In this document: piece after piece, positions 14,487 to 64,000 of the stretch
Numbering within the stretch: position 1 is the first letter of the stretch
Layout of the letters: the number at the start of each line of letters is the position of its first letter
From: a virus
DNA: 64,000 nt
Reading direction: 5' to 3' (one strand)
IMG/VR virus record: IMGVR_UViG_3300032323_003835
Location: 47,206-111,205 of that record
The notes under the pieces: generated by a model
What the model saw: only the letters and a program-made list of their open reading frames with translations
What the model was told of the DNA's origin: nothing
Databases searched by the model: none
Translations under genes and position numbers: made by a program

Positions 14487-15407
14487 TTAAACCATATTTT
14501 TAGCTAGCATATCATCTCTGAAAGCAGTTGATTTTGCTAGGGTTTCTTGGAATATAGGCTTACTTAAATCGTTACCTAATCCGGCGTTAACGTGAAAGAC
14601 AGCTTTGAGAGCTGCATCTTTATTCGGAAATTCATTAGGATCATTTGATCCGTACAGGGATTTAACTTTAGGGTTTTTTAAATTCTCTATAAAATAAAGT
14701 ACTGCAACTTCTGCTGCAACATCTAGCTCGTTTAAGGCATCGGGATTGGTAACAAAGTTTATTGACCTTCCAAGTTTTCCATTTTCGTTATAGATCTTTT
14801 GCATTTTTTCATATCCGGCTTTAAAAGTAATTCCATTGAATCCTATTCCCGCATATTTTGATCCATCACCTGGTTGGGTGTTTCCCATTTTTTGAGAAGC
14901 CCCTGTAGGATCATCTGGACCATAAACCCTATCCCAAAATTTAGAAGGATCAGCTTTTAATGTATTAAGCTCAGCGTCAGTTAAAGTGGCGACTCTTTTA
15001 CCAAAGATTTTTCTGATTCTGTCATTACTAGTATTAGTATAAGGAACCTCATTCTGTGGTGCCCAACCGCACTCTTTACCGATAACACCCTGAATGGATG
15101 CTCTCATATTTTTATCGGTAATTCCGTGTCTGTCCATTGCCTTGTTTACTTCCTCTACGCCCTTTTTAACATCCTCCGCGGAAGGAACTTTAGCACCGCT
15201 TCCTTGTAATCTTTCGCCCCATGATGTACCACCACCTTCAGGATCATCCCCTAAGAAATCACCAAATCCTGCTCCTTTGATTATTTCTGCAGCCTTTTTT
15301 AATTGGTCTATCATTGTAGCACCCGACCCAGTAGGATCTTTCATTGGGTCTTCTTTTTTTACTTCCTGCTCATTTATAAAGCCTGAAAATTGTTTTAGGT
15401 ATTTCAT
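14487..15407 (-). CDS. Lysozyme/GH19-like protein with N-terminal MKYLKQF..NE peptide
   Basis: IGKECG (catalytic Glu-like), GNTQPGDGSKYAGIGFNGITFKAGY resembling the GH19 motif, NPDAL. Confidence 0.6.
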   Translation of the reverse strand: MKYLKQFSGFINEQEVKKEDPMKDPTGSGATMIDQLKKAAEIIKGAGFGDFLGDDPEGGGTSWGERLQGSGAKVPSAEDVKKGVEEVNKAMDRHGITDKNMRASIQGVIGKECGWAPQNEVPYTNTSNDRIRKIFGKRVATLTDAELNTLKADPSKFWDRVYGPDDPTGASQKMGNTQPGDGSKYAGIGFNGITFKAGYEKMQKIYNENGKLGRSINFVTNPDALNELDVAAEVAVLYFIENLKNPKVKSLYGSNDPNEFPNKDAALKAVFHVNAGLGNDLSKPIFQETLAKSTAFRDDMLAKNMV

Positions 15408-15408
15408 A

Positions 15409-15723
15409 TTAATTTCTAAATTTATGTGGGAATAGCAATCTTAATTCGTGCCCTTGTGGAATGTCTTTTTTTCTGATTCCAAATATTTTTTCTTCAGGAC
15501 AGGGATCTTCCCCGTTCCATTTAAATCCATTATTACATGCCCAGGTTTTCATTCCAGCGTTTACAGTCTGTCCGACCGAATATGGAAATCTAATACCAGC
15601 ATCATTATTTATCTCTGTAATTCTACCACCAGTGACAGAAACTATAATTTCTCTTCCCTGTCTAGAAACCAGATTAATTTTATTCTCTCCTGAATATGCT
15701 TCGTATATTTCTATATGCCTCAT
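15409..15723 (-). CDS. Hypothetical protein with MRHIEIYE N-terminus
   Basis: Shared N-terminal peptide; GATATATAGA upstream at ~15741-15750. Confidence 0.65.
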   Translation of the reverse strand: MRHIEIYEAYSGENKINLVSRQGREIIVSVTGGRITEINNDAGIRFPYSVGQTVNAGMKTWACNNGFKWNGEDPCPEEKIFGIRKKDIPQGHELRLLFPHKFRN

Positions 15724-15815
15724 TTTCTTGTTATTGTAATTCTATATATCAGATACATAAATCGATCCTTTGGAAACAATGATTGTAAAATAAACTAAAA
15801 TAATTAAAAGAAAAG

Positions 15816-16226
15816 ATGACCGAAAGAAAATATTTGCCAACATTAGCAGAATTGGTCGACAGACTAAGTATATCGCAATTAAAGGAGGTTTTTATTCCCC
15901 AACATAAGGATGAATACGCACAAGAAATAAGCGATATAGTGCATGATATTCAGGTTTTATTGGATTCAAGTGAAAAGGTAAACGCAGATACAATCAGGGC
16001 TATTGTGGTTCTTTCCCAAATGAATCTTCATATTTGGCACAACGAATCCAATTATAGAAAGGGAATAAAGGACGGAAATAACCTAGAACTTACCCACGGT
16101 CTGAATGGGATAAGAAACACGGCAAAGAACAAGATCCAAGAAATAGTGGGCGGAAGAAAGGATTACAAGATTGATTGCTTAGCTGCTGATTTTAAAGACT
16201 GGGAAATTAGCTGGAATAATGGGTAG
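15816..16226 (+). CDS. Hypothetical protein
   Basis: 136-aa helical ORF (TLAELVDRLSI...NLHIWHNE) next to the sugar-pathway genes. Confidence 0.65.
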   Translation: MTERKYLPTLAELVDRLSISQLKEVFIPQHKDEYAQEISDIVHDIQVLLDSSEKVNADTIRAIVVLSQMNLHIWHNESNYRKGIKDGNNLELTHGLNGIRNTAKNKIQEIVGGRKDYKIDCLAADFKDWEISWNNG

Positions 16227-17064
16227 GATATTTTTATTCGGCGATTCTTTTACCTTCAATCTGTATGAGAGAGCAAGGAATGTAAAAGAACCAGGGGTTA
16301 GTGAAAGACCGATATTAAAGTATATGGATCTCTTAACAAAAGAGTTGAACCCAGATCCATTACATTTTTCAGACTATTTAAAGAAATTTGGATATGATGT
16401 TTATAATTACGGGGGAAATGGAATATCGATATACTCGATCATTTACTACTTTAAAGCATTAGCAGATTTCAAATTCAAAGAGGGAGACAGAATAATAGTC
16501 AATCTTACCTCATTCTCTAGGTTCGATCTGATAGACGATAAAGGGGAGAACCACACAGCTGTCTGTGAAAACGTAGGCGACTGGACAGAGGATCTAACAA
16601 TAAAAAGATTTATTGTAGATCAAAGATTAAATAGACTCTACAGTTTAGACAATCGTGGGTATATTGGATGGGAACTTTTAAACTTTTTAAAATATTTCTT
16701 AGATCTACATAAAGAATATAGACCGATTCTTTGGTCGCCATTTCCTGAAAATATAAAACCTTTTGAAGATTGCAGGTGGTTTGTTAGAGACATTTCAGAC
16801 CCCATTTTTAAATCGATTTGTCCAGAGCATGATAAAATAAGAATATGGGACGAAACCCATAATTTAATTTATGATGAGCATTACAGCAGATATGGTAACT
16901 ACTATAATGCTCATATATTTAAATCTGTTTTAGAATCTGGACTGGATGGATTTTATCTTTCTGATGAAGATTTAAATTCTAAAATTTTTGACATTGTTTC
17001 AAAAGAATCTGGATTTACCCCAATAAAAGAAAGAGCAATTAATAGATTTAGGAATCTCATTTAA
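16219..17064 (+). CDS. SGNH/GDSL-like hydrolase-fold protein
   Basis: FGDSF block I and DxH(YS) block V; paralog of 60696..61541. Confidence 0.6.
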   Translation: MGRIFLFGDSFTFNLYERARNVKEPGVSERPILKYMDLLTKELNPDPLHFSDYLKKFGYDVYNYGGNGISIYSIIYYFKALADFKFKEGDRIIVNLTSFSRFDLIDDKGENHTAVCENVGDWTEDLTIKRFIVDQRLNRLYSLDNRGYIGWELLNFLKYFLDLHKEYRPILWSPFPENIKPFEDCRWFVRDISDPIFKSICPEHDKIRIWDETHNLIYDEHYSRYGNYYNAHIFKSVLESGLDGFYLSDEDLNSKIFDIVSKESGFTPIKERAINRFRNLI

Positions 17065-17088
17065 AACCAACAGGTAATATTTAGAAAA

Positions 17089-17634
17089 TTAGGAATAATA
17101 CAATTCCGGATATTCAACTATAACGTGGATGCCTCCTTTATTATAGACATCTTTATAAATTGATTCAATAGATTCCCATCCAGAAAGATCCCAGAATTTG
17201 ATATTAGGACACATGGATCTGAATTCGCTGAAATAATTTCCTCTGTGCTGATGTCCCGGATCTAATGGTTTATCTGATCCTTTTCCCAATCGTATAATCA
17301 TATTCGGATTCCACTTTCCTTGGCTCATCAATCCTATCTTATCAACATGATTAACTAGTTGATTCGTTGCGCATATTAAAAAATCCCATCTTGGATAAAA
17401 CGTGATTACAAAATTTCCAGTCATCGCCATTCCTAAAGACATTCCCATTTGGGATTCTTCCATTACAGGAACTTCGATCAGCTTATCTTTTGGTACGTCC
17501 CCGATAGTGGTACTCATCGGATTGCCGTGCCACAATACTTGTTGCCCGATGAATACAGTATCTTCTTTATCGGCAAGAAATTTCATGGATGCTGTTAGTG
17601 CATCTTTATAAGGGGTGTATTGGGGTTGTGCCAT
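17089..17634 (-). CDS. TPP-dependent enzyme beta subunit (transketolase/E1-beta pyrimidine-binding domain, short)
   Basis: VFIGQ, EVPVMEE...GMSLGMA, NQLVNH, PGHQH. Confidence 0.75.
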   Translation of the reverse strand: MAQPQYTPYKDALTASMKFLADKEDTVFIGQQVLWHGNPMSTTIGDVPKDKLIEVPVMEESQMGMSLGMAMTGNFVITFYPRWDFLICATNQLVNHVDKIGLMSQGKWNPNMIIRLGKGSDKPLDPGHQHRGNYFSEFRSMCPNIKFWDLSGWESIESIYKDVYNKGGIHVIVEYPELYYS

Positions 17635-18428: not shown

Positions 18429-18431
18429 AAA

Positions 18432-20608: not shown

Positions 20609-20842
20609 TTATTCTTCTTCGGTCTCTCCTTCTTCCTCTTCAGCTTCTTCAGCTTCATAATCATAAGGATCGTACTCAGCTTTAAATTCAGCTTCTTCCT
20701 CTTCTGGAGTTTCTTCCTCGAAATCTTCTGCGTATGACGGAGATGGACCTTCATTAGGATCTACCAGATTGTCAGCATCATACATGAATTGTGTCTCCTC
20801 TTTTACGTCGTCCCAACTTTCGAATAATTTAATGTGTTTCAT
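20609..20842 (-). CDS. Highly acidic small protein with MKHIKLFE N-terminus
   Basis: Shared N-terminal peptide; Glu-rich tail. Confidence 0.7.
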   Translation of the reverse strand: MKHIKLFESWDDVKEETQFMYDADNLVDPNEGPSPSYAEDFEEETPEEEEAEFKAEYDPYDYEAEEAEEEEGETEEE

Positions 20843-20880: not shown

Positions 20881-21711
20881 CTATCTTAACTCGTCGAAGG
20901 TATTTTTTACGTCTGTGGCAGTTTGGATGTCAGTCGGTTTGTTTGCATTAGCAGTTGCCGAAAGTATATTACCAAGAGCCTGCTGCATTAACTTAGAGCT
21001 TGGATCCTCCGGTGCTTTTCCAAACTCTCCTCCAACAGTTTCATCGTCAGGATAAACATCTTGTCCAGTTAATGGTGAAAGATTTGAGGCTTGACCTGTT
21101 AATGCTTTAGATATATTAGTTTCAAATTCCGGAGTTCTACTACTTTTAAAATAGTCGATAAATCCAACGAGGTTAGTACCGTCTATCTTTCTTTTGTTGA
21201 TCCCAACTCTATCTCCTTCACCGCTGAGCTGATCGTTGGTGTTACCCTCCATAGAAGTGAAAGATCTATCCTTCTCGTCAACCGAAACTACAATACCAGT
21301 ATGACCTAGACCTTTCCCTGGACGGGTCATAATAAAGATCTGACCAGGTCTGATTAAGCTTGGATTAGATTTTATTCGATCAACCGGAATTTTAGTATCA
21401 GCAGGAGCTTGGTTCCAGTGATTCAAACATCCTCCTGTTTTAACTACGCTTGTTGTTTTACCCAATCTCTTACAAAGCTCATCGAAGATATAGTAAACAA
21501 AGGCCATGCACCAAGGAAGACCTCCCGAAAGACCCACTGATTGTAAATATTTAGTAACCTCTGGACCCTTATTACTTCCCTTAGGTTGTTCTTTCGCGTC
21601 CTTATGGGATGCAAGAACACCAGCGAAAGTTTCACCTGCCCCGGAAGGGTCGCTAAGTGGAATTTGCTGTGCTTCCTGTACAAACAGGCTAAAATTTTTA
21701 ATTCTTCTCAT
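20881..21711 (-). CDS. CHAP-domain amidase with N-terminal MRRIKNF..QE peptide
   Basis: PWCMAFV, GHTGIV, SMEGNT; GGATATATAGA directly upstream. Confidence 0.8.
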   Translation of the reverse strand: MRRIKNFSLFVQEAQQIPLSDPSGAGETFAGVLASHKDAKEQPKGSNKGPEVTKYLQSVGLSGGLPWCMAFVYYIFDELCKRLGKTTSVVKTGGCLNHWNQAPADTKIPVDRIKSNPSLIRPGQIFIMTRPGKGLGHTGIVVSVDEKDRSFTSMEGNTNDQLSGEGDRVGINKRKIDGTNLVGFIDYFKSSRTPEFETNISKALTGQASNLSPLTGQDVYPDDETVGGEFGKAPEDPSSKLMQQALGNILSATANANKPTDIQTATDVKNTFDELR

Positions 21712-22393: not shown

Positions 22394-23677
22394 TTAAAAC
22401 TTAGGACAAGACATGCTGCCCCATTTTCTTTTACTTTCCAATCTGTAAAATAACATGTTCCAGTCAATATTGAGTCTAAGCTTAGGTATCCTAAATTTAG
22501 GTTTCTTACCTGCTGTAATAGTCACGAAGAAAGCTTTTTCCTTAACCTCTATTGGTTTTTTAGGATCTACCTTAATTGGTTCTGGTTTAGTTTCTGCTCC
22601 TTTAACCGGTTCTTCCTTTTTAGTGTCATTAAAAACTATTCCAGCTTCTACCGAAACTTTTTGATACTTCTTCAGAGCTTGTTTATTTGCATCGGTTTTA
22701 TCCCATTCTTCACCGGATGTCCCAGTTAAATCCGTTCCAACAGGCTGAGACGCATAAGCAACCGTGGATTTTTTACCTGCATTGGTGCCTTTAGTCGATT
22801 TTTCTATTTTGGTGTCACCGTCAATTAATACCCCAATCTTAGCTAATTCTTCTTTTAAATACTTAATGGTAGATTCTGCTCTAAGATCAGAGAGTTCGGC
22901 AAAAGTATGTTTCTTTTTATCCTCAGGAGAAACTCCGTTTGGAATAGTAGAAGAAGATGTTGTAATCTTCAGAGAATTAAGATATGATTTAGGTTTGCCG
23001 TCCGGCGGGTTTAATTTAGAGATTGCTTCCTTAGAAGGATTTATCACATTTTCAGTTAACCACGTTTTAAATTTCTCCGAAAGTGTCCAACTATTAAACT
23101 CAAAGAAATCTGAAGTGTCAATATCTTGAGGAATTTCTAGTTTAACCTCTGGGTATAATATCGGAGGAGTGTCAGAAGATTTAGGATCTGTTGATTCGCC
23201 AGGAGCTCCAGGGGTTTCGCGATTATTATAAAAATCAGCAGCATATATTTTTACATTCTTACCTAGATCTAATGGTGCTTTTCTATCCACTGGTTCTCCC
23301 TTGTAATCCTTCGGAAGCTTGTCATGAGTTGCATACACAATAAACATGGCATACTTCTCTGGAAATTTTTCTTTAAACCCCTCAAGAGCTGTCTTAGATT
23401 GATCGTCGCCAACAATTTTCAAAACTCTTTCTTCACAATCTGTAAATCCTTCGGTGTTCATCCAGTCTAAAAGGCTCATATCTTTGGTTAGTCCTTTTGC
23501 TAATGGATATCCCTCTGCCTTGTAATTATTATAGGATTTCAATGATGAAAATCCAACTTTACTTGTTCCAGAAGCGTCCTGATCGTTTGCTTTGAATCCC
23601 CACACGTAGTAAGGATCTTCTTGCTCGTTCATTGCACTTTCATCATTCCATGATTTAAATTCTACTAAATACTTCAT
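22394..23677 (-). CDS. Hypothetical protein with MKYLVEF..E N-terminus
   Basis: 427-aa ORF; GGATATATAAG upstream; LSDLRA resembles an OmpA-like motif (weak). Confidence 0.65.
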   Translation of the reverse strand: MKYLVEFKSWNDESAMNEQEDPYYVWGFKANDQDASGTSKVGFSSLKSYNNYKAEGYPLAKGLTKDMSLLDWMNTEGFTDCEERVLKIVGDDQSKTALEGFKEKFPEKYAMFIVYATHDKLPKDYKGEPVDRKAPLDLGKNVKIYAADFYNNRETPGAPGESTDPKSSDTPPILYPEVKLEIPQDIDTSDFFEFNSWTLSEKFKTWLTENVINPSKEAISKLNPPDGKPKSYLNSLKITTSSSTIPNGVSPEDKKKHTFAELSDLRAESTIKYLKEELAKIGVLIDGDTKIEKSTKGTNAGKKSTVAYASQPVGTDLTGTSGEEWDKTDANKQALKKYQKVSVEAGIVFNDTKKEEPVKGAETKPEPIKVDPKKPIEVKEKAFFVTITAGKKPKFRIPKLRLNIDWNMLFYRLESKRKWGSMSCPKF

Positions 23678-24584: not shown

Positions 24585-25715
24585 TTAAAATCCAAGCTCA
24601 CCTAGATCTGCAAGGGTTGAAGCCGCGTCTCCAATTCTCTTGGAAACAGCATCAAATGCCTCCGGATAATTTTTCTTAAGCAGAATCATCGCTTCTGGGG
24701 TAAGATATTTGGCATCAATATTCGATGCTCTATCTAAAATAAACGGACCAAAAAGATTAGGATGCACACTTAAACCCTCCAGCCATCCTTCAAAATTCCA
24801 TTTCTTTATTTCGAAGGTATCCATCTTTTTTGGCCAATCTGGTGCATATTCGAACTTTCCCCCTATTTTTAAAGGTGCCCCAAATAATGAGGTAAGTTTT
24901 GAGCCGATAAAAAATCTTCCGCCAACCCTTAGAGGTGATCCTTCTAATGAATATAGGTTACTTCCTGTGCAAAGAAATTCTCTTCCAACATCCAAAGGTC
25001 CTCCTTTTAGTGAGGTAAGTTTATCATTACCGTATAATCTAAATGATGCTCCTACCTTCTCAGGAGATCCTTCTAATGAGGTAAGTCCTATATCCATGGC
25101 CACAAAATCATGGAGAATCTCACCAAACTTAACTCCTCTAAATCCAAGATTGGTTCCTTGTGCTTCAAAATTTCCTAGAACGTCAATTTTTCCGGTTGTT
25201 TCGTTGATCCTCCATGTTTTCTTTGATGATTTATCCAGCCAATTAACTATGGATGGTGTAAGATTATATTTTTTATAAAGATCACCAAGAGGATCATCAA
25301 TCCCTGTTCTATCCAAAATCTCTTCCCTAATTTTTGGAAGTTCATCCAGATATTTTATCATCTCCGGGTTGTTCTTCATAAGGGTATCTAAATCATCAAT
25401 GGATACCTGGGTAATTCCTTTTTTAATAAATCTAGTAATCACATACCCTAACATTTTGGGCATTGGATTTTCCAATTGATATTGATAAACATAACCTTGA
25501 CTAGATGTTCTCACATATCCAGCTGAAGTAATTCTAAGTTTTACCCCGGAGTATGGACTATGTATTGTAAGGGTTCCGTTTTTATTGATGTCATAAATTT
25601 CAAAACCCATTAGCCTTAGAAATTTCCATTCGGGAAGATCTTGCCATGCACCAGCCCAGTCCTCTACTGTAACAATTTTAGATTCAAATATTTTAAAATT
25701 CTTTAGATGCTTCAT
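24585..25715 (-). CDS. LRR-like repeat protein with MKHLKNFKIFE N-terminus and ADLGELGF C-terminus
   Basis: LTSLEGSPxxVG repeats; start taken at 25715. Confidence 0.75.
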   Translation of the reverse strand: MKHLKNFKIFESKIVTVEDWAGAWQDLPEWKFLRLMGFEIYDINKNGTLTIHSPYSGVKLRITSAGYVRTSSQGYVYQYQLENPMPKMLGYVITRFIKKGITQVSIDDLDTLMKNNPEMIKYLDELPKIREEILDRTGIDDPLGDLYKKYNLTPSIVNWLDKSSKKTWRINETTGKIDVLGNFEAQGTNLGFRGVKFGEILHDFVAMDIGLTSLEGSPEKVGASFRLYGNDKLTSLKGGPLDVGREFLCTGSNLYSLEGSPLRVGGRFFIGSKLTSLFGAPLKIGGKFEYAPDWPKKMDTFEIKKWNFEGWLEGLSVHPNLFGPFILDRASNIDAKYLTPEAMILLKKNYPEAFDAVSKRIGDAASTLADLGELGF

Positions 25716-26154: not shown

Positions 26155-27387
26155 TTAAAATCCTAACTCTCCTAAATCTGCAAGAGTTGAAGCACCGTCT
26201 CCAATTTTCTTGGAAACAATATTGAATCCCTCCGGAGAATTTTTTTTAAGCATAATCATTATTTCTGGAGTAATAAATGGTCTAAGATCTTTGACATCTA
26301 TCTCTTGTACCCTATCTAAAAGGAATTCGCTAAAAAGCCTTGGACTTATTCTGAAACTATCAATCCATCCCTTTAAATTCCATTTAATTCTATTTATGTG
26401 ATTATCATAACCAAAAAGTCCACCAATCTTCAGAGGTGCTCCCTCCATGGAGTCAAATGGATTTCCATGACAAGCAAAATTACCTTCAACCTCCAGCGGT
26501 GCTCCTTCTAGGGAGGTAAGTAGATTATTACTACAATGAAAACCCCCACCTATCTTCTGCGGAGATCCTTTTAGAGAAACGAGTTTATTGTTATAGCAAT
26601 TAAAATCACCACCAACACTCTGTGGTGCTCCTTCTAGAGACGTAAGTTTATTTCCCGAACAATCAAATTTCCCACCAACCTCTGTTGGTGATCCCGCTAA
26701 AGAGGTAATTTTATTGTTATGGCAATCAAAATCCCAACCTACCTCTTGAGGTGCTCCCGTCAGGGAAGTAAGTTGATTTCCCCCACAATCAAAATGCCTT
26801 CCTATCCTCCGAGGTGCTCCTACTAGGGATGTAAGACGATTACGAGAACAATCAAAAAACCCTTCAACCTCCAGCGGTGCTCCCTCTAGAGAGGTAAGTT
26901 CATTATCAGAACAATAGAAAGTACCCCCGACCTCTTGCGGTGATCCTTTTAGAGAAGCGAGTTTATTGTTATAGCAATTAAAATCACCACCAACACTCTG
27001 TGGTGCTCCCTCTAGAGAAATTAGTTTATTACTGTAACAATGAAAGTTCCCACCAACCTTCCGCGGTGCTCCGTTTAACGAAGTAAGTTTATTATCGTTA
27101 CAGACAAAATTCCCTCCTACCTCTTGGGGTGCTCCTTTTAGAGAGGTAAGATTGTTTACGATATCAAAAACAATAAAATCACCAGTCACCACTCCAAAGG
27201 AAACAGGCAGCACTTTTTTCTTACTATCCGAGATCATAAAGTCACCATCAACATCAATTAGTCCAGTTTGCGGATTTAAAGACCATGTACCTGTACCCGA
27301 ATGGGTTCCCATATTCAGAAAAGACCTCTGTGACGGGGTTAAGTCGGAAGCAGATTCAAACAAGGAAAATTTCTTTAGATATTTCAT
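26155..27387 (-). CDS. LRR-like repeat protein with MKYLKKFSLFE N-terminus and ADLGELGF C-terminus
   Basis: About 12 repeats of 22 aa (LTSLxGAPxxVGGxFxCxxN). Confidence 0.8.
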   Translation of the reverse strand: MKYLKKFSLFESASDLTPSQRSFLNMGTHSGTGTWSLNPQTGLIDVDGDFMISDSKKKVLPVSFGVVTGDFIVFDIVNNLTSLKGAPQEVGGNFVCNDNKLTSLNGAPRKVGGNFHCYSNKLISLEGAPQSVGGDFNCYNNKLASLKGSPQEVGGTFYCSDNELTSLEGAPLEVEGFFDCSRNRLTSLVGAPRRIGRHFDCGGNQLTSLTGAPQEVGWDFDCHNNKITSLAGSPTEVGGKFDCSGNKLTSLEGAPQSVGGDFNCYNNKLVSLKGSPQKIGGGFHCSNNLLTSLEGAPLEVEGNFACHGNPFDSMEGAPLKIGGLFGYDNHINRIKWNLKGWIDSFRISPRLFSEFLLDRVQEIDVKDLRPFITPEIMIMLKKNSPEGFNIVSKKIGDGASTLADLGELGF

Positions 27388-27571: not shown

Positions 27572-28084
27572 ATGATGAGGTATATTAAAAGCTACGACGA
27601 AAAATCAAATATAAACGAATCTGAAGAATATCCCGGATTGTACAAGGTATCAATAGATTTAATGCTCGACAGTGATTATGTAGATCCTATAATATATTTG
27701 CAGGAAATAATTGATCAGTTCCATGTTCAAATTATAAATATGCATCCCATAGGTCAAGGAGGGGGTAGCACAGAAGTAGTTTTTAGAGGGAAAGCTACTG
27801 ACATTATGAGACTATTAAAATATCAAGAGGATCGTGCAAATTTTACCGGAGAAGAAACCAAGGATTTTGTAACAATTACAAATTTACCAAATCCTGCCGA
27901 GGATGATGGGTGGGAATATTTCGAAGAATTTGCAGTACCAGATTCCCCTATCCCTTTCAGTGTTCAATCTCTTCCTAGATTTTCTACAGACAAGAATAGA
28001 AGATATATCAATTTGGACGGAACAGCAATTGATGCATCAGGAAGAGAACGACTCAAAGATATGTTCTCAACTAAGAACAATTAA
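27572..28084 (+). CDS. Hypothetical protein with MRYIKSY..INE N-terminus
   Basis: Opposite-strand gene between two LRR paralogs; GAATATATA upstream. Confidence 0.65.
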   Translation: MMRYIKSYDEKSNINESEEYPGLYKVSIDLMLDSDYVDPIIYLQEIIDQFHVQIINMHPIGQGGGSTEVVFRGKATDIMRLLKYQEDRANFTGEETKDFVTITNLPNPAEDDGWEYFEEFAVPDSPIPFSVQSLPRFSTDKNRRYINLDGTAIDASGRERLKDMFSTKNN

Positions 28085-28103: not shown

Positions 28104-29258
28104 TTAAAATCCTAGATCACCTAGGTCTGCAGCGGTGGTAGCTCCTTCCCCAAATCTCTTAGCCAGAATCTTAAAGGTCTCTGGTAATTTTTTTCTGATG
28201 ATATTAAGGTCTTCCGGAGAGAGATCTCTAGGATCTATTTTTTCCGCCATGTTTGCAATAAAAGGTAAAAAAAGATCTGGGTCTTGCTCCATTCCCTGTA
28301 GCCAACCTTTTATATTCCATTTAATATCCGAAAAACGAGGGTGATATGAAAAATTACCTCCGATTCTCATCGGTGCACCCTCTAGAGAGGTAAGCGGATT
28401 GTATACACAGAGAAAATTTCTTCCGACCTCGATCGGCGCTCCTTCTAGAGAAGTGAGCTCGTTACTTTCACAACTAAAATTATCACTAACACCCTGTGGT
28501 GATCCTATTAAAGAGGTAAGATTATTTCTATCACAACGAAAATAAGGTCTAATTCCCTGTGGTGCTCCTACTAGGGATGTAAGACGATTACTACTACAAT
28601 CAAAACCACCCCCGATCTTAGAAGGTATTCCCTCCAGAGAGGTAAGCTCGTTGTTGCCACAATCGAAACCCCCTCCTACATCCTGTGGTGCTCCCTCTAA
28701 GGAGGTAAGTTGATTAGTATAACATATAAAATCGCCACCAACACTCGGGGGTGCTCCTGCTAGAGACGTAAGTTTATTTCCCGAACAATCAAATACCCCA
28801 CCAACCTCTGTTGGGGATCCCGCTAAAGAGGTAATTTTATTTTCCCGACATCTAAAATTCCCTCCTACATTCTGAGGTGCTCCTGTCAGAGAAGTAAGTT
28901 CATTTCCCCCACAATCAAAATTCCCTCCTATCCTCCGAGGTGCTCCCTCTAGAGAGGTAAGACGGATAACCCTACAAATAAAATTTCCTCCAACCTCTTG
29001 GGGAGCTCCTTTTAGGGAGGTGAAACTGTTTTTATATTGTTTAAAAGCAAAATTTCCCGACACAACACCAAATGAAACTGGCAGTAATGTTCTGGTAGTT
29101 TCACCAACACTAAAATCTCCATCAACGTCAATCAGACCGGTTTGAGAATTTAATGACCAGGTTCCACCACTTTGGGTTCCTTTGTTTAGGAAAGCTATCT
29201 GAGGGACGGATAGTTTGAAAGAGGATTCAAATAAGGAAAATTTCTTTAGATATTTCAC
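28104..29258 (-). CDS. LRR-like repeat protein, paralog of 26155..27387
   Basis: Same N-terminal 12 aa, about 11 repeats of 22 aa, C-terminus ADLGDLGF. Confidence 0.8.
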   Translation of the reverse strand: MKYLKKFSLFESSFKLSVPQIAFLNKGTQSGGTWSLNSQTGLIDVDGDFSVGETTRTLLPVSFGVVSGNFAFKQYKNSFTSLKGAPQEVGGNFICRVIRLTSLEGAPRRIGGNFDCGGNELTSLTGAPQNVGGNFRCRENKITSLAGSPTEVGGVFDCSGNKLTSLAGAPPSVGGDFICYTNQLTSLEGAPQDVGGGFDCGNNELTSLEGIPSKIGGGFDCSSNRLTSLVGAPQGIRPYFRCDRNNLTSLIGSPQGVSDNFSCESNELTSLEGAPIEVGRNFLCVYNPLTSLEGAPMRIGGNFSYHPRFSDIKWNIKGWLQGMEQDPDLFLPFIANMAEKIDPRDLSPEDLNIIRKKLPETFKILAKRFGEGATTAADLGDLGF

Positions 29259-29269: not shown

Positions 29270-29926
29270 TTAGAATCCTAACTCGCCTAGGTCTGCAATT
29301 GTGTTAGCGCCTGGGTTGGCACTCAGGGTCTGCCAGATGGCGGGAAATCTTTGACGCAGGACTCTTGCAACTTCTGGTTTAACTTTCGCGGATAGAATCC
29401 CCTTCAGATGTGTGATAAGAAATTTAAGATCCTCTATGTCATAGGCATGTCCCTCAAAGAGCGAGATGTTAGAATTAATAAGCTCTACGTGTTCTTTCCT
29501 AATGAGGGTATCAGGGAAGATCTCCGCGTCACAAATGAGAAGGACAAGATCCGTCCAAAGGGATCTTAAACAATCTTCTGCTGTGGGAAAGTCCCCTCCA
29601 TGAAAATATACATTACCATATCCACTAACAGGCCTATATCCCCAGGACCACATAATATCTACATCGGAGGTTGTTAAATTAGGACCAAAATTGGCATTTT
29701 TCTTTATATAATTGGTTTCAACAGTAGGAAATACCGTAGTACCACCACGTTTAACGTACGAAAATCTAGCCCAGGTCTTAAACTTTTCCGAAGCCATGCC
29801 TGTAGTTTTATTAATAGCAAGCAGATCTCTGCCCGCCTGGGTTTCTTCTAGAGCATACTTAAGTTCACTCTCAAGATCTTGTCTTGTCTTATTTTCGTAG
29901 AGTGTATAGGTCTGGAGGTGTTTCAT
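29270..29926 (-). CDS. Hypothetical protein with MKHLQTYTLYE N-terminus and ADLGELGF C-terminus
   Basis: Shares both terminal tags with the LRR paralogs but has no LRR. Confidence 0.7.
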   Translation of the reverse strand: MKHLQTYTLYENKTRQDLESELKYALEETQAGRDLLAINKTTGMASEKFKTWARFSYVKRGGTTVFPTVETNYIKKNANFGPNLTTSDVDIMWSWGYRPVSGYGNVYFHGGDFPTAEDCLRSLWTDLVLLICDAEIFPDTLIRKEHVELINSNISLFEGHAYDIEDLKFLITHLKGILSAKVKPEVARVLRQRFPAIWQTLSANPGANTIADLGELGF

Positions 29927-36224: not shown

Positions 36225-36590
36225 TTAGTAGTATTTCTCCTGGCTCATTCTACGAAGAGCATTATAAAGTAATACTGCTTCTTCCTCTATATTATGTAAG
36301 TCTAATACATTACCTCTGTACATAATCTCTGGTGCATTCTTATCAACTGTTACGGATGTGTTAAGAACGCTAGCTACTATTACACCAGGTTTAATTTCTC
36401 TTACGTTACTTACATAACCATACATATCTGAGCTACCAATAGCTTTATGAATGGAACGTAGTGACTTGCGATCTTCCTCGTTTTCATATCCCATTGCGTG
36501 TTTAGCTCCCTTTGCTAATCTAGAAAACAAGCCTTCAGGCTTTCTCATTGGACCTTCTTGGAAGTTTTCATATATCTGAAGATGTTTCAT
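36225..36590 (-). CDS. Hypothetical protein with MKHLQIYE N-terminus
   Basis: GGATATATAAA upstream; lies between palindromes. Confidence 0.7.
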   Translation of the reverse strand: MKHLQIYENFQEGPMRKPEGLFSRLAKGAKHAMGYENEEDRKSLRSIHKAIGSSDMYGYVSNVREIKPGVIVASVLNTSVTVDKNAPEIMYRGNVLDLHNIEEEAVLLYNALRRMSQEKYY

Positions 36591-38230: not shown

Positions 38231-38512
38231 TTACATAGACCAAGCTGGATTAGCAACTATTAAAATTCCGTTTTCTATTCTTGGAATCTCTTTGGTTGAA
38301 TAAGCATCATCATATTGGATTTGATTCGGATAAAATTTTTGTCCTTTGAATACCACATAGTTTTCATCAGAATCATCCTTGCCCATATGACTATGTCCCT
38401 GACCTCTTAATGAGTCATGAGCTGCATCTTTTACCGTGGGTTTACCGAATATGCTATTCCAAAAGCTTTCGTTAACTTCTGATTGTTCTCCGTACTTTTT
38501 AAGGTGTTTCAT
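38231..38512 (-). CDS. Hypothetical protein with MKHLKKY..VNE N-terminus
   Basis: Start at 38512; AGATATATAAA upstream. Confidence 0.65.
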   Translation of the reverse strand: MKHLKKYGEQSEVNESFWNSIFGKPTVKDAAHDSLRGQGHSHMGKDDSDENYVVFKGQKFYPNQIQYDDAYSTKEIPRIENGILIVANPAWSM

Positions 38513-39103: not shown

Positions 39104-39289
39104 TTAATCAGGTTCTCCTTCATAGTAAACCTTGTTATCTGCTCCACACTTGTGACAAACATAAAGGTCTTCCTCTGATGACTCGGTGGAATTCCAGTTC
39201 CAGCCACATTTATTGCATTCTATTTGGGTAGGAGCCTCATAAGGTTCAACTTCAATCCCAAAGTTCTCGTAGATCTGTAGGTGTTTCAT
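39104..39289 (-). CDS. Small zinc-ribbon protein with MKHLQIYE N-terminus
   Basis: CNKCGW...CHKCG; start at 39289. Confidence 0.65.
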   Translation of the reverse strand: MKHLQIYENFGIEVEPYEAPTQIECNKCGWNWNSTESSEEDLYVCHKCGADNKVYYEGEPD

Positions 39290-44238: not shown

Positions 44239-44239
44239 A

Positions 44240-51739: not shown

Positions 51740-52306
51740 TTACATTCTAGCAGCAGGTCCTTCTTCCTCATCATCTCTGAATTGCATGAAGTGTTCCATA
51801 GCTCCTGTTTTTAACTCTTGTCCCCATGATTGAATTTCCATGAATTGATCACCATCAACAAGTTCAACAGCATACATAGTGTCACTATGTTCTCCTACTA
51901 CTTCTCCGTTCCTGTTATAAATAAGGACAGGAGTCTCGTTTCCTTGTAATAGACTAAGATCGTAAGCTGTAGTGATTAAAGCCTGGCCGCCTTCAAATCC
52001 TGGTACGTTAACTGCAGGAAATCCTAGCTGAGCGTCTCCTGGATTTGTTACTTCTGAAATAGAGTCAACTAGCAAATAGATAGAACCTCCTGTTTTAGCT
52101 TTTAAAGATTCTAGAGACTCGCCTAAATCAAATCTGAATGGTAGGTAGTAATCTGATTGTAAGCTTGAAAGATGTTGCCAAATCATGTTTGCTTCTTTAG
52201 CTGGGAAAACTGCAACGTCTACACCTTCGCTAATTACACCAATAACTATCTGTCCTTCCATTGCAGGATCTTCGTTGAAAGCTTCGAATAATTTAATGTG
52301 TTTCAT
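51740..52306 (-). CDS. Acidic hypothetical protein with MKHIKLFE N-terminus
   Basis: GATATATAG upstream; flanked by near-identical intergenic blocks. Confidence 0.7.
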   Translation of the reverse strand: MKHIKLFEAFNEDPAMEGQIVIGVISEGVDVAVFPAKEANMIWQHLSSLQSDYYLPFRFDLGESLESLKAKTGGSIYLLVDSISEVTNPGDAQLGFPAVNVPGFEGGQALITTAYDLSLLQGNETPVLIYNRNGEVVGEHSDTMYAVELVDGDQFMEIQSWGQELKTGAMEHFMQFRDDEEEGPAARM

Positions 52307-53324: not shown

Positions 53325-53531
53325 TTAGTATTTAATTGTGTCTAGAATCGAAAAGATATAGTGCGTTGCCCTATTCAAATCCCCTTCGGTTTCATTCACC
53401 CACATGGAGACTTCTTCAACGAGTTCTCCTAAGGTTTCGCAATTCATTAATGTACCCACGTACTCGGTTGAGTGCCCGCGTTCAGCTTCTACCGTAGCGA
53501 AGCTTTCGATGATGGTTTTTACTAGTGTCAT
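53325..53531 (-). CDS. Hypothetical protein
   Basis: Start at MTLVK (53531), below the promoter. Confidence 0.55.
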   Translation of the reverse strand: MTLVKTIIESFATVEAERGHSTEYVGTLMNCETLGELVEEVSMWVNETEGDLNRATHYIFSILDTIKY

Positions 53532-53601
53532 AATTGTCGTGTTTTTAATTACCAGACAAATATACAACCCATCCGCGGAAATTTAAAATGTGCCCGGAAA
53601 A

Positions 53602-53853
53602 TTAAAGGGAAGCTCCTAGTGGAATAACAGGAACGTCATAGGCACCAAATACCTTTTTGCGATAACGCTCGTAGATATGACCTTCACGTATAGATTTGGA
53701 TTCAAGGTCAATTAGAAAATAGGAATAAGCTCTATCGTTTTTAACGTCAGCAAAAAGTATCTTGCCTTCTTGCTTTAGAGGTACTTGAATTAATTTACCG
53801 AGTGGGCGTCGCCCAAAGTTAAGTAAACGGCTTCGAAGTTCTGAACTTGTCAT
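53602..53853 (-). CDS. Hypothetical protein
   Basis: 83-aa ORF. Confidence 0.5.
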   Translation of the reverse strand: MTSSELRSRLLNFGRRPLGKLIQVPLKQEGKILFADVKNDRAYSYFLIDLESKSIREGHIYERYRKKVFGAYDVPVIPLGASL

Positions 53854-56533: not shown

Positions 56534-56887
56534 ATGAAACATCTAAGAGTCTTTGAAGCCAATGCATGGCCTGTTCAGGAAGATGCACTACCTAAGGATA
56601 ATATGTCCTCTAAAAAAGGAGAGCACACCAAGAAGATGGCTAACTTCTTTAACAAGTATTATAAAATGAATCTTCCACTAGACGGCAACGCGAAGAATCC
56701 GGAATACATCAAAGCTTTTACTAGATTCTGTACCGAGAAAAAGATTACCATCTGGACATGTAAGCCAGGCGATGGCTGGTGTTCAGACGCACAAGCAGGT
56801 GAGGTAACTATCAAAGACCCAATTGCTAAATCAAAATTTGATAAGATCCTTAAAAACACTTTGCTTACCTTACTGATGAAACCTTAG
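56534..56887 (+). CDS. Hypothetical protein with MKHLRVFE N-terminus
   Basis: GGATATATAA upstream; hairpin terminator at 56912-56940. Confidence 0.65.
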   Translation: MKHLRVFEANAWPVQEDALPKDNMSSKKGEHTKKMANFFNKYYKMNLPLDGNAKNPEYIKAFTRFCTEKKITIWTCKPGDGWCSDAQAGEVTIKDPIAKSKFDKILKNTLLTLLMKP

Positions 56888-56959: not shown

Positions 56960-57520
56960 TTAAGCCTGTAGGTCTTTTAGACTTATGGTCTGCTTATCTG
57001 CTGGGAGTTCGTCTAGCATCTTTCCAATCTCGTCCCATTTGGATGGACCTTCATCTTGTGGCTCTCTTACGTATGCCGGGGTATCTTCTACCTTCTCCTC
57101 AGGAGGAAGCTTCTCTACCGGGATTGTCCCTAGTACCTTAATGGCAGATGGTGGTATACCCTGGTTGGTGTAGATTGCTACATAGGATAGAGAACTATCT
57201 GGATCCGCATAGAACTTATGATCGGTCAATTGTGGCAGATCTATCTCTAGTATATGGTATTTCTTTACCCTGTCCTTATATGAGCTAGAATGCCATAGAT
57301 CCCTCGCTAGGGTCTTAAGCGAGCTCGAAGGATTGAGATAAAGGTAGATTCTCTCTGGATGGGGAGCTAGCTTGCTTTCTGTGCGGGGTGTGAGTCCTTC
57401 TTTCTGGATACTCCCTAGGTAGATGTCCGGAGTAAGATGATAAGCCTTCTTCTTGCTTGGGAATATCTCCATTTCCTCTGTTGGGAAAAGAAAGTTCTCA
57501 TATAGTAGGATGTGTTTCAT
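56960..57520 (-). CDS. ADP-ribosyltransferase-like (Tpt1/KptA-type fold) protein with MKHILLYE N-terminus
   Basis: AYHLT...SIQKEGLTP...RIYL...ILEID...IPPSAI pattern. Confidence 0.55.
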   Translation of the reverse strand: MKHILLYENFLFPTEEMEIFPSKKKAYHLTPDIYLGSIQKEGLTPRTESKLAPHPERIYLYLNPSSSLKTLARDLWHSSSYKDRVKKYHILEIDLPQLTDHKFYADPDSSLSYVAIYTNQGIPPSAIKVLGTIPVEKLPPEEKVEDTPAYVREPQDEGPSKWDEIGKMLDELPADKQTISLKDLQA

Positions 57521-58732: not shown

Positions 58733-59287
58733 TTATTTGAAAATTACTCTTCTTGGGAAAGGTGTTCCACTTTGAGCAGCTTCGATAAATTCAGGTTCAA
58801 ATGTATATGAATCAAAAGATTCAGCCGCATCGCTGTCAAAATTTTCTGGTCCATTATAGATCTGATCGCATTGCTCTTTCATTGAAACCTCAATGTCAGC
58901 AGGATCGATTGAAGGATTGACGAACAATCTCACAATACCATCTCTTCTGTCCTGTCCAAATTGTGTTTTAAGTTTGCTCGAATAGATAGATTTGTCAGGA
59001 GCAGTGTAAGCACCATTTTGATCCCCGCCAAATATGTTCTCTGCAATATCTTCCATGTTATCTAAAGGCTCTTCCCCTTCCATTTCATAACCAGAAGGAA
59101 TTGGTGATCCTGCAGGTACATATTGGAAGATATATGTCATTGGAGCAATAAAATCACCGGCAAAGTCTTCCGCGAATTTGTCAGGATTTTTTAAAATGCC
59201 TGTCCAGTCTCCAGTAACTAATAATTGTGCTGGGGTTTCCTGGGACATCTCCTGATCCCATGCTTCGAATAATTTAACGTGTTTCAT
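58733..59287 (-). CDS. Acidic hypothetical protein with MKHVKLFE N-terminus
   Basis: Start at 59287; AGATATATAAA upstream; terminator at 58677-58710. Confidence 0.7.
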   Translation of the reverse strand: MKHVKLFEAWDQEMSQETPAQLLVTGDWTGILKNPDKFAEDFAGDFIAPMTYIFQYVPAGSPIPSGYEMEGEEPLDNMEDIAENIFGGDQNGAYTAPDKSIYSSKLKTQFGQDRRDGIVRLFVNPSIDPADIEVSMKEQCDQIYNGPENFDSDAAESFDSYTFEPEFIEAAQSGTPFPRRVIFK

Positions 59288-59391: not shown

Positions 59392-59727
59392 TTATCTCCA
59401 ATAATCATTACCATAAACATCTCCTCCATCCTCAAGTTCTCTGGCTTTGATCATTTTTTGATTTCTCTGCTCTGCTTTTATCTCTTCTTTTTGATCGGGA
59501 GGCAATGAATTAACCCACCTCATAATTTTATCAGATCTTCTTTTTCGGCTTCTAGGAGTTGGTGCATTACGTGCGTAACCTATTAGATCTAACCATTTCT
59601 CTGTTATGGATTGTTTAGAGTGATTAATTATCATCCCGAACATGTAATCAAAATCCTCTTCTGAATGAGACAGGGATCCAGTATGGCTGTCATCGTCCCA
59701 ATTTTCGTATAATTTAATGTGTTTCAT
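59392..59727 (-). CDS. Hypothetical protein with MKHIKLYE N-terminus
   Basis: AGATATATAAT upstream. Confidence 0.7.
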   Translation of the reverse strand: MKHIKLYENWDDDSHTGSLSHSEEDFDYMFGMIINHSKQSITEKWLDLIGYARNAPTPRSRKRRSDKIMRWVNSLPPDQKEEIKAEQRNQKMIKARELEDGGDVYGNDYWR

Positions 59728-60695: not shown

Positions 60696-61541
60696 ATGGG
60701 AAAAAGAGTATTTTTATTGGGTGATTCCTTCACAGAAAATTTATATCAAACCCAATTGGAGGTTAGAAATACAGGAGGTCCTAGAATTGGAGAAATTCGT
60801 AAATATATTGATTATGTAATAGAGAACACTGGGGAGTGTCCATTATACTTTGACGACTGGCTTAGGAAATGGGGATACGAGGTTCACAACTTTGGAATGG
60901 GTGGTTGTTCCATTCACCATATATTTAATCAATTTGCACAGATTGATTCTGAATTTAGACCTGGCGATAGACTGATTGTGAATTGGACAGATCCTCAACG
61001 ATTGGATTGGCTTAGAGGTGATGGCAGGATTTCAACACTAGGTCCCAATCAATACGCCGAAGAGCCTAAGGTCATGCGTGCAATCCAGGATCAATTGATT
61101 CTTCGAATGAAATCAATACAGAATGAGGATGGGTATGGATACCTTAGAAATCAAACACTGTTTTTTGCATCAAAACTTGTAGACCTACACGCTAAATATA
61201 AGCCTATTCAATGGTCTCCTTTTGGTGATATATCAGAGGCTCTTCAAAGTTATGTGTGGTATTTCTTTGAACCACATCACAGAATGTTTAAAGATTTCAT
61301 ACCAGAGTGGGATATGCTTTTTATTGACTCAGAGACAGGCGGGATTTGTAACGATAAGCACTATTCCAGATTGGGTAACTATTATGTAGCTCTGGCATTT
61401 AAAACTATCATGGAAGAAGGAGATGAATTTAATGGTGATTGGAAAAATGAATCGCTATTAGAAAAAGTGTCTAGTGTGTTTAAGAATAACCCTCCCAATT
61501 TTGCTCCTATCAATTGGAAATTAAAAATTGCTAGAGGGTAA
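60696..61541 (+). CDS. SGNH/GDSL-like protein, paralog of 16219..17064
   Basis: LGDSF, GDRLIVNWT, DKHYSRLGNY. Confidence 0.6.
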   Translation: MGKRVFLLGDSFTENLYQTQLEVRNTGGPRIGEIRKYIDYVIENTGECPLYFDDWLRKWGYEVHNFGMGGCSIHHIFNQFAQIDSEFRPGDRLIVNWTDPQRLDWLRGDGRISTLGPNQYAEEPKVMRAIQDQLILRMKSIQNEDGYGYLRNQTLFFASKLVDLHAKYKPIQWSPFGDISEALQSYVWYFFEPHHRMFKDFIPEWDMLFIDSETGGICNDKHYSRLGNYYVALAFKTIMEEGDEFNGDWKNESLLEKVSSVFKNNPPNFAPINWKLKIARG

Positions 61542-61570
61542 CGGATATATAAATAAGTAAATTAAAAAAA

Positions 61571-62062
61571 ATGAAACACGTTAAACTTTACGAATCTTGG
61601 GACGAAGGCCAAGACAATTACCCTGATCCTGCAGTACTATCCCCCGATGAATTTGAGGCTGAAATAGAAAAAGCAATCCAAATGGAGGATCCAGTGGCAG
61701 GTGCTTTACGCATTCAGAAATTGATCAGAAATCTAAAAGATGCCCCGGAGGATATGAAGGTTTACAATTCAGTTAGAAAATATAAAGATTATACAGAAGG
61801 ATTAACTCCTCAGCAAAGGGAAGATATTAAAAAAGCTTTGGCATCTACTAAGAAATCCGAGGCGGATTGGGAAGCTGATGCAAATATATTGGAACCAAAA
61901 CTCAGATCTGCATTAAAGGCACAAAGAGACGATTTACTTTCTAAGCTCGATAAAAAGAATGATCAGGATCCGATGGAAAGAAACAAACAGCATAAATCTG
62001 ATATTCTTGATAAATTTGCAGCGGGCGAGATCACTAAAGAAGAAGCTTTAGCAGCATTATAA
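61571..62062 (+). CDS. Hypothetical protein with MKHVKLYE N-terminus
   Basis: GGATATATAAAT upstream; bidirectional terminator at 62074-62107. Confidence 0.7.
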   Translation: MKHVKLYESWDEGQDNYPDPAVLSPDEFEAEIEKAIQMEDPVAGALRIQKLIRNLKDAPEDMKVYNSVRKYKDYTEGLTPQQREDIKKALASTKKSEADWEADANILEPKLRSALKAQRDDLLSKLDKKNDQDPMERNKQHKSDILDKFAAGEITKEEALAAL

Positions 62063-62126
62063 CTACACAAAACAAAAAAAAGACCTAGAGAAATCTAGGT
62101 CTTTTTTGTGGAATTGGTTAGACGAA

Positions 62127-62510
62127 CTATTTATAATAGGAGTCTGGGGCTTCTATAACCCATAGAGGAGGATCTATACCCATTCTAACCAATCCTGCCA
62201 ATCTAGTATTACCTGACATGAGATCATAGTAATGATCGCTAAACTTAACCACGATGGGCAATTCAACCTTGCATTCCCTTATTGCTTTTTTAAAGCGTAA
62301 TTTCTTTGGTTCTTCCAATGAGTCAAAGTCCAAATCGACATTTCCTAATATCTCCTTGATCTCCGAATATTTTATTACATGTCCGCATGTAGCTAAATCC
62401 AGCCATTTTTCCTTTCCCACCTCTTCGAATTCTGGATATCTAATGGCTTCTTCCCATTCTAAATCGAAATTGGGTACTTTAAATTTGAGTCCTAGTGTTT
62501 CGTTTTTCAT
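62127..62510 (-). CDS. ParB/Srx-like N-terminal domain protein
   Basis: LPIVVK....YDLMSGNTRL motif; start taken at 62510. Confidence 0.5.
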   Translation of the reverse strand: MKNETLGLKFKVPNFDLEWEEAIRYPEFEEVGKEKWLDLATCGHVIKYSEIKEILGNVDLDFDSLEEPKKLRFKKAIRECKVELPIVVKFSDHYYDLMSGNTRLAGLVRMGIDPPLWVIEAPDSYYK

Positions 62511-62594
62511 TGGTATAAATTTATTGAAGGTATGCGGAATAATAAAATGCGTCATTATATATGGTAGGAGTAAAATTTTATTTACTTTTGAAAC

Positions 62595-62960
62595 ATGGCA
62601 GGACATTCACACAGACACATAGGGGATATCGAGGATCTGTATTACGTGGATCAAGAAAATGGATTTATTATAGTTTATAATTATGCATATAACAAAGGTG
62701 TTGTTCACGGTAAAGGTGGAAAGGTAGAGTTAAAAAGCTATTCTAGAATCACTATAGATATTAGTCTAGAAAATGGTAAGACTAGTAACAGACACACTGC
62801 AGTATACTATAAAAAACATGAGCCGGGAAATAAATTGATTACCAGATATTACTTCACTAAAAATGTTGGAAGTTCTATGGATATAGATCTTTCACCCGTT
62901 CCTAAAGATCTGTACGTAATAGAGAACGATTGCATGATTTGGGAAAGTATCCAGTCCTAA
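62595..62960 (+). CDS. Hypothetical protein
   Basis: 121-aa ORF. Confidence 0.5.
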   Translation: MAGHSHRHIGDIEDLYYVDQENGFIIVYNYAYNKGVVHGKGGKVELKSYSRITIDISLENGKTSNRHTAVYYKKHEPGNKLITRYYFTKNVGSSMDIDLSPVPKDLYVIENDCMIWESIQS

Positions 62961-63017
62961 CTTCGCAATAGGAACTATAATTACTTTAGATATATAAATA
63001 AAAAATAACAAAAAGTT

Positions 63018-64000
63018 ATGCAAAACAAGATTATGAACTTCAATGAGTTCTCTAGAGTTTATGAATCAAACTCGTATCTCACTGAAGAGGAAGCAGCAGC
63101 TCCACCTAAAGACAATGCAGAAACCGCAGTGGTTTCCGACGACGGATCCATAGGGGTACAGCCATCAGAAATTCTAGATCTTTTAAAAGAACTAGGAGGA
63201 AAAGAAGGCGAGGAAAAAGTAGAATCTACACCAGACGAAGAAACTCCAAACGAATCCCTAGTTGAACAGGAGGCAGTTAGCACACTTAAGGTTGCTAAAA
63301 TGGGAGAAAAAAGTGAAAGAGTAAAACAAATACAAAGCCTCTTAGGTCTTAAACCAAGCGGTAATTTCGATCAAGCTACTAAAGATAGCGTTATGAAATT
63401 CCAAACTGAACAGAAGAAAAAAGATTCAACAATTGTAGTTGATGGTATCGTTGGTGTTCAAACATATGGTTTAATGCTTAGAGTTAAAAAAGGAATGACT
63501 AGTAAGAGTGATATAGCAACCATGATAGATAAATTCCAAAAATCTGGTAAGACCGTGGTTTCTGTTGCTCCAGCAGGAAAAAACATAGCTCTTGATCCTA
63601 GATTGTATGAGGTTTTCGAAAAAATAGAAATCGTTACTAACAACGGAACAACCTACGTGGTAGCTACTCCTAGAAGAGATGCAGCAACCAAAGTCGCTGA
63701 ATTAAAGAAAGCGGGATTATTAGGCTCTGATTTCTCTTGGCTATTAGCAGTTCCTGCAGCTATTGGTAAAGCTATAGTATACACCGCAATCGGGGCAGTA
63801 GTTATTCAAGTAGAAATTGCTAAAGCAATGGTAAATGCTGCTATCGCAGCAGGTGCATATGTAGGTCAAGCATCAATGGCAGTTGCATCCAATATAGCTT
63901 ACGGGGTTGCTCAAATTGGTAACTGGGTTAAAGCTAAAGGAGTACAAGCTTGGGCCACTCTTAAACAAGACGCAAAAGAAGCACTTGCGGTTTGGGCAGG
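63018..64000 (+). CDS. Peptidoglycan-binding-domain protein, partial (runs off window end)
   Basis: Read by eye from ATG 63018: MQNKIMNFNEFSRVYE..., then GEKSERVKQIQSLLG...GNFDQATKDSVMKFQ...VDGIVGVQT (PG_binding_1-like), then an Ala-rich hydrophobic region; AGATATATAAAT upstream. Confidence 0.75.
   Translation, partial: MQNKIMNFNEFSRVYESNSYLTEEEAAAPPKDNAETAVVSDDGSIGVQPSEILDLLKELGGKEGEEKVESTPDEETPNESLVEQEAVSTLKVAKMGEKSERVKQIQSLLGLKPSGNFDQATKDSVMKFQTEQKKKDSTIVVDGIVGVQTYGLMLRVKKGMTSKSDIATMIDKFQKSGKTVVSVAPAGKNIALDPRLYEVFEKIEIVTNNGTTYVVATPRRDAATKVAELKKAGLLGSDFSWLLAVPAAIGKAIVYTAIGAVVIQVEIAKAMVNAAIAAGAYVGQASMAVASNIAYGVAQIGNWVKAKGVQAWATLKQDAKEALAVWA

Follow-up and report, generated by a model that had tools for sequence, protein, structure and literature searches.

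An N-terminal peptide shared by late proteins of an uncultured giant phage is a likely capsid-targeting sequence

The stretch of DNA analysed here, called the window, is the last 64 kb (64,000 nucleotides) of the 111,205-bp virus record IMGVR_UViG_3300032323_003835 (G000); feature coordinates are those of the window unless marked as genome positions. About twenty otherwise unrelated late proteins encoded in it have an N-terminal peptide of 8 to 13 residues in common, referred to below as the tag. We consider it likely that the tag is the capsid-targeting sequence (CTS) of an uncultured clade of T4-type giant phages of Bacteroidota and that it acts in packaging and is cleaved. The proteins marked by it, several of which are cell-wall enzymes, would form a large set that is probably packed into the capsid and injected together with the DNA.

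In a preliminary description of this DNA, strict tags had been assigned to 19 gene starts, and all 19 indeed translate to M-[KR]-[HYR]-[ILV]-x-x-[FY]. A six-frame scan of the whole record, in which every ATG, GTG or TTG with at least 40 codons downstream was considered, returned 21 matches. All 21 are at real gene starts, 19 in the window and two upstream of it (genome 28049 and 34413). A profile scan of gene starts, also suggested at that stage, was run with a position-specific scoring matrix (PSSM) trained on the tags of other genomes only and bore out the assignment: 17 of the 208 N-termini of G000 but only 3 of 27,577 internal windows scored at least 8 bits, and the score distribution was clearly bimodal. 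The consensus reads M-K-H-[LIV]-[KQ]-[LI]-[FY]-E-x-[FWY]-x-x-E; only L, I or V occur at position 4, and only F or Y at position 7. A looser version of the tag had been proposed for the gene starting at 63018. With a PSSM score of -1.7 this gene is doubtful as a tagged gene, though it is a late gene.

The first eight codons of the tagged genes differ synonymously (CAT or CAC; TTA, CTA, CTT, CTC, ATT, ATA or ATC; TTT, TTC, TAT or TAC; AAA or AAG) while the residues are kept, so the tag is conserved as a peptide and is under selection. It is retained across genomes whose other proteins are only about 35-40% identical. In orthologs the tag and the body are conserved, and the linker that adjoins the tag is hypervariable, being Pro/Lys-rich and containing insertions and deletions. 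A hydrophobic-x-Glu site is present in the first 13 residues of all 19 tagged proteins as compared with 50 of the 189 untagged ones (p = 1e-10). The first residue of this site is often F, W or Y instead of L or I, and tags of G000 and its relatives end in F-I-N-E, F-L-T-E or F-V-Q-E. None of the tags has the hydrophobic core of about 10 or more residues behind a basic N-terminus that characterizes Sec, Tat and lipoprotein signal peptides. Instead they are charged and amphipathic, with K, H and E next to hydrophobic residues at positions 4, 6, 7 and 10, and true signal peptides of the same record differ from them.

The bodies behind the tags had been described as unrelated except for proteins resembling leucine-rich repeat (LRR) proteins. 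BLAST comparisons agree with this: similarity was confined to the LRR-like paralogs starting at 25715, 27387 and 29258, plus a short stretch which they have in common with the protein starting at 29926. As LRR-like paralogs occur both with and without a tag, the tag is an add-on to a common body; in the untagged paralog (9454-10611, minus strand) the body begins where the tagged bodies begin. The idea that tagged genes turn over faster than others was not supported. In a comparison with G006, a collinear IMG/VR genome of 132 kb (94 common proteins, mean identity 58%), 8 of 13 tagged and 82 of 136 untagged genes were conserved, which is no difference.

The tagged genes are linked to a distinct upstream motif. 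RATATATAR occurs 26 times in the window (positions 6023 to 62997, strand not specified), 3.7-fold more often than the 7.0 +/- 2.6 copies expected, and none of 100 shuffled sequences reached 26. The copies are located either 24-28 or 11-12 nucleotides upstream of start codons. The sequence (G/A)ATATATA had been reported upstream of most tagged genes, and this was confirmed: ATATATA lies within 50 nucleotides upstream of 16 of the 19 tagged genes as opposed to 11 of the 189 untagged genes (Fisher p = 3e-14). Two tagged genes (20609-20842 and 39104-39289) have an ATACATA variant, and the genes starting at 15407 and 25715 are second genes of late operons and have no promoter of their own.

The nature of the motif was apparent from G011, an IMG/VR genome of 244,850 bp (86% complete) that is collinear with G000 and has 91 proteins in common with it at a mean identity of 68% (G000 459-80,619 corresponds to G011 79,640-9). 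There, copies of this motif stand ahead of the genes for sheath, tube, portal and head protease. Judged from the motif, RATATATAR is therefore a late promoter, as had been assumed. The sheath, tube, portal and protease proteins of G011 carry no tag and have ordinary N-termini, so the tag does not belong to late proteins in general. Promoter and tag had been viewed as one portable module. Their association stood, but they are separable elements rather than a fixed unit: 11 untagged genes and the structural genes of G011 have the promoter, and two tagged genes lack one of their own. At the starts 21711, 27387, 29258, 29926, 57520 and genome 34413 the motif ends about 5 nucleotides before the start codon, which would leave the mRNAs of these six genes with little or no leader. 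The remaining tagged genes have it 24-28 nucleotides upstream.

The closest known counterpart of the tag is found in phage T4, whose internal proteins were reportedly shown to have a CTS by Mullaney and Black in 1996. As the preliminary description had stated, the CTS reads MKTYQEFIAE in the T4 record; this holds for IPII and IPIII, and IPI begins with MKTFKEF, so that the common frame is M-K-x-[YF]-x-x-F. The CTS is carried by IPI, IPII, IPIII and Alt and is removed by the gp21 prohead protease (PMC3012670, PMC9026906). According to a review of mutational work on IPIII, targeting depends mainly on residues 4 and 7 (Tyr4, Phe7), and residues 8 and 10 serve processing (PMC9026906). The tag resembles the T4 CTS in being a short peptide with which otherwise unrelated late proteins begin, in its frame M-K-x-hydrophobic-x-x-F/Y with hydrophobic or aromatic residues at the key positions 4 and 7, and in its hydrophobic-x-Glu end. 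The cut sites F-L-T-E in gp23 and F-L-I-E in gp67, taken from the T4 record, resemble the tag ends given above. In both systems the cargo is diverse and varies between relatives. The tag differs from the T4 CTS in its greater length, with His or Tyr at position 3, Glu at position 8 and a second aromatic residue at position 10.

The resemblance extends to the head genes of the lineage, which has a gp21-family protease, a gp23-family capsid protein and a cleavable scaffold as in T4 and, as described for G011, a promoter common to tagged and head genes. Beyond its collinear part, G011 encodes a full virion module with tail sheath, tail tube, portal and a gp23-type major capsid protein. The N-terminal part of a 693-amino-acid protein (G011 161872-163953) is a gp21-type Peptidase_S77 domain, and residues His85 and Ser140 (T4 numbering) are invariant in an alignment with T4 gp21. 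Its C-terminal part contains 14 tandem repeats of 14 residues each, in which the core is Y-[LIV]-A-E-x-[LV]; the density of [LIV]xE in this part is 5.9 per 100 residues versus 1.6 in the proteome (3.6 times). This protease-fused tail looks like a built-in, self-digesting scaffold, a fusion that distinguishes the lineage from T4. Further, more than 119 stretches, many of them on contigs of 100-640 kb, were matched in a scan of IMG/VR in which one DNA spelling of the tag was used. A gp23-family capsid gene was present in 15 of 20 contigs found by the tag alone, including all six that were at least 90% complete, and two of the five gp23-negative contigs are fragments collinear with G000 and G011.

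Two observations concern tagged genes close to head genes in other genomes. In G003, a very acidic protein of 130 amino acids is encoded between the portal and protease genes (53445-53837), where T4 has gp67 and gp68. Its tag follows a 6-residue extension, and the true start may be the internal Met. In G008, one tagged LRR-like family is present in 12-13 dispersed copies (for example 89200-89721, 90366-91001 and 94707-95285) that are about 60% identical to each other, have at least the first 26 residues in common and in some cases lie between head genes; this copy number is unusually high for a phage gene family. As the tagged genes next to the protease gene of G008 belong to this dispersed family, their position is weak evidence.

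Taken as a capsid address, the tag would work as follows. Tagged genes would be transcribed from RATATATAR along with the head and tail genes. The N-terminal peptide, chiefly its hydrophobic residues 4 and 7, would dock the protein on the scaffold core of the assembling prohead. The gp21-family protease, fused to the repeat scaffold in this clade, would then cut after the first hydrophobic-x-Glu and release the mature protein in the head. At infection the cargo would leave with the DNA; it includes several enzymes and binders of the cell wall, LRR-like proteins, small proteins that are very acidic, and many whose function is unknown. Such ejection would account for how cell-wall enzymes produced in the cytoplasm gain access to the wall, from outside, at entry.

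Several points weigh against a capsid address. Packaging, cleavage and ejection, like docking, are steps that we infer from sequence. The 111-kb G000 record, a fragment, contains no head genes, and the link of the protease to G000 runs through relatives, with G011 at about 68% protein identity. When the major capsid protein was aligned with T4 gp23, there was no Glu at the T4 Glu65 site in the clade, the only conserved I/V-L/I-E being near residue 19. Simple docking by mimicry of the scaffold repeat was considered and is unsupported, as the G011 repeats were not among the highest-ranking internal matches to a PSSM of tag positions 4-13. No enrichment of the tag pattern was detected in the cultured relatives PTm1 (Tenacibaculum), MaF61 (Flavobacterium), PAU (Sphingomonas) and MA9V-2 (Chryseobacterium); since these have the same head genes without expansion of the tag, the tag is not a necessary companion of the protease. 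Many of the cargo proteins are acidic, unlike the basic T4 proteins IPII and IPIII. Finally, the cell-wall enzymes could act at lysis instead.

One alternative survives best, although we regard it as unlikely: the tag might be a docking or sorting peptide for another late process, such as assembly onto another part of the virion (baseplate, tail or neck, for instance), recruitment to a chaperone, or the targeting of enzymes that act in lysis or on the cell wall, with or without cleavage by the head protease. Among the larger tagged proteins, four are directed to the cell wall and match PHROGs named 'endolysin', and such a role would fit the capsid protein cut site that is not conserved with T4 and, to a small degree, the cultured relatives that have the same protease and no tag expansion. 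However, most tagged proteins are not lysis-like (LRR-like, zinc-ribbon-like or small and acidic), and no phage needs about 20 lysis proteins. The tag matches the T4 CTS at positions 4 and 7, where function has been mapped, every tag has a hydrophobic-x-Glu, and a tagged acidic protein lies between portal and protease in G003; these points also speak for the head rather than for another destination.

That the tag is a gene start devoid of function is improbable. Such a start might have spread by recombination as a cassette of promoter and first codons, or might be all that was kept from a common ancestor. In favour of this reading, the promoter often lies right next to the tag, small genes form a plastic array in this region, and G008 has its 12-13 dispersed copies of one tagged family. 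Yet synonymous variation with conserved residues denotes purifying selection on the peptide, and tags without their own promoter as well as promoters without tags occur. A start without function also does not account for tags that are kept between genomes otherwise about 35-40% identical, or for orthologs that retain the tag next to a freely varying linker.

It is very improbable that the tag is a leader for a modifying enzyme, for example a radical-SAM maturase. The record does encode three radical-SAM proteins, but their genes are part of a sugar and peptide tailoring operon at genome 7.5-17.7 kb. No tagged gene lies closer to them than 10 kb, the main cluster is more than 44 kb away, and the window contains none of them, so that no maturase gene adjoins the tagged genes. 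Least probable of all is that the conserved start serves translation initiation on late mRNAs, some of them leaderless, as six tagged genes with the late motif ending about 5 nucleotides before the start might suggest: the N-termini of structural proteins expressed late from this promoter are ordinary, the tag is conserved in its residues but not in its codons, and operon-internal genes are tagged as well.

The capsid-targeting interpretation may be extended to the clade as a whole. We see about even chances that the whole clade (genomes of 100-640 kb, including the published 462-kb uncultured phage LR756500) uses one portable 13-residue address to load 20-30 different proteins per virion, which would turn the head into a device for delivering effectors, comparable in scale to a bacterial secretion system. 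Among the loaded proteins would be several cell-wall enzymes, expanded LRR-like families and acidic proteins resembling DNA mimics. In LR756500.1 the tag pattern gave 34 hits versus 3 in the control, mostly M-K-Y-I-K-E-Y; many of the hits are clustered at 11-17 kb and 313-318 kb. In Lak-A2 it was weakly enriched (14 hits versus 6). LR756500 (44%) and the Lak megaphages (39%) also have the nearest capsid proteins in GenBank, in records that are without annotation. Further near capsid proteins belong to the Tenacibaculum phages PTm1 and pT24, Flavobacterium phage MaF61, Chryseobacterium phages and Sphingomonas phage PAU.

With respect to scale, the preliminary description had placed this system well beyond T4, and the count of 21 tags in 111 kb agrees, compared with a handful of carriers in T4. 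The cargo is likewise different in that it includes cell-wall hydrolases and binders, LRR-like families and many acidic proteins, and the system, in genomes of 100-640 kb with Bacteroidota as hosts, is known from sequence alone. A second group of giant phages, phiKZ and SPN3US, has ejection proteins with long N-terminal propeptides that are cut by the prohead protease, as demonstrated by mass spectrometry (PMC5694885, PMC10052503). As proposed here, many head-loaded proteins are trimmed in these phages at x-x-Glu by a T4-related protease. Unlike the tag, the propeptides are mostly 80-130 residues long and have no single short peptide in common, and the phages belong to another clade. Literature searches for this tag, for literal tag strings in 8.4 million papers or for an expanded CTS in huge Bacteroidota phages returned no paper, and a search for capsid targeting in huge, jumbo or megaphages returned only the SPN3US work.

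That a CTS allows T4-like phages to load varied proteins is a published idea (PMC3012670, PMC9026906). With the principle known from T4, the surprise is limited, and the new part is a longer tag on an expanded set of carriers. If the tag is a capsid address, sequence alone would label otherwise unrecognisable injected proteins in a large group of uncultured giant phages and would thereby provide a direct candidate list for proteins that take over the host, counter its defences or breach its cell wall. It would also imply that the T4 principle is ancient and can be scaled up several-fold. In practical terms, the tags would represent a natural set of CTS variants for probing recognition by the scaffold core and by gp21-type proteases, and a ready handle for packaging foreign proteins in non-model phages.

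The predicted cargo includes a CHAP protein, a lysozyme-like protein, an OmpA/MotB-like protein, LRR-like proteins (three or four), a mini-protein with four Cys and a number of very acidic proteins. None of these proteins has a signal peptide. The lysozyme- or endolysin-like protein (14487-15407, 306 amino acids; minus strand, as all tagged genes below unless stated otherwise) matches phrog_181 endolysin with E = 1e-18. Behind its tag, of which F-I-N-E are the last residues, come a variable Pro/Lys-rich linker and then the lysozyme-like body. The linker is of low complexity and changes fast: one relative has Pro-Ala repeats there, another has repeats of Lys-Asp-Pro. The gene is the second of a late operon with 15409-15723 (104 amino acids), which is preceded by a late motif at 15742-15750 and is conserved in all close relatives. 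A CHAP peptidoglycan-hydrolase domain (PF05257, E = 2.8e-10) is present in the 276-amino-acid product of 20881-21711.

The protein encoded at 22394-23677 (427 amino acids) was examined with AlphaFold and Foldseek. In the model, residues 1-22 form a disordered, low-confidence appendage ahead of two folded domains. Every top Foldseek hit of the second domain is an OmpA/MotB peptidoglycan-binding domain, with probabilities up to 0.99 and E-values of only about 6e-3. A sequence-profile search of the PDB matched OmpA at only E = 0.4, and tblastn yielded no match. Distant homologs of this protein have different N-termini, yet they retain [LIVM]-[NS]-E-[QE] at the junction of tag and body.

The tagged LRR-like paralogs are encoded at 24585-25715 (376 amino acids, ATG at 25715, second gene of a late operon), 26155-27387 (410 amino acids, late motif 12 nucleotides before the ATG) and 28104-29258 (384 amino acids, with a GTG start that is also found in relative L007). 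The gene at 29270-29926 (218 amino acids) encodes the protein with the short stretch in common with them. Between these genes, on the plus strand, lies 27572-28084 (170 amino acids), in which the tag begins at the second Met (27575).

Acidic proteins are encoded at 20609-20842 (77 amino acids), 51740-52306 (188 amino acids, net charge -20) and 58733-59287 (184 amino acids). Asp and Glu make up 47% of the body of the first, a composition known from DNA mimics and anti-restriction proteins and also from acidic core peptides such as that of T4 gp67. The mini-protein of 61 amino acids (39104-39289) has four Cys residues and is zinc-ribbon-like. The other tagged genes are 36225-36590 (121 amino acids), 38231-38512 (93 amino acids), 56960-57520 (186 amino acids) and 59392-59727 (111 amino acids) and, on the plus strand, 56534-56887 (117 amino acids) and 61571-62062 (163 amino acids). 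The late gene with the unsupported tag (63018-64000, plus strand) has a peptidoglycan-binding, endolysin-like region and is cut off by the end of the contig; a search for a relative that extends the contig beyond this last gene found none.

The record has a G+C content of 36%. When the window was compared by megablast with the phages in GenBank, nothing matched, so that it has no close relative among them. Besides the sugar and peptide tailoring genes, it contains genes for a Ro60-like protein and envelope proteins and many small open reading frames. The small-gene array at 33-55 kb of the window (33000-55500) is driven by promoters of the TAnnTTTG type, which we take to be the Bacteroidota sigma-A -7 box. 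Because the small genes have such promoters, the host is probably one of the Bacteroidota, and on this sequence evidence we regard a member of that phylum as the most likely host of the G000 phage. Single late tagged genes are scattered through the array, among them 36225-36590, which lies within this array of small early-type genes, so that early and late units are interleaved.

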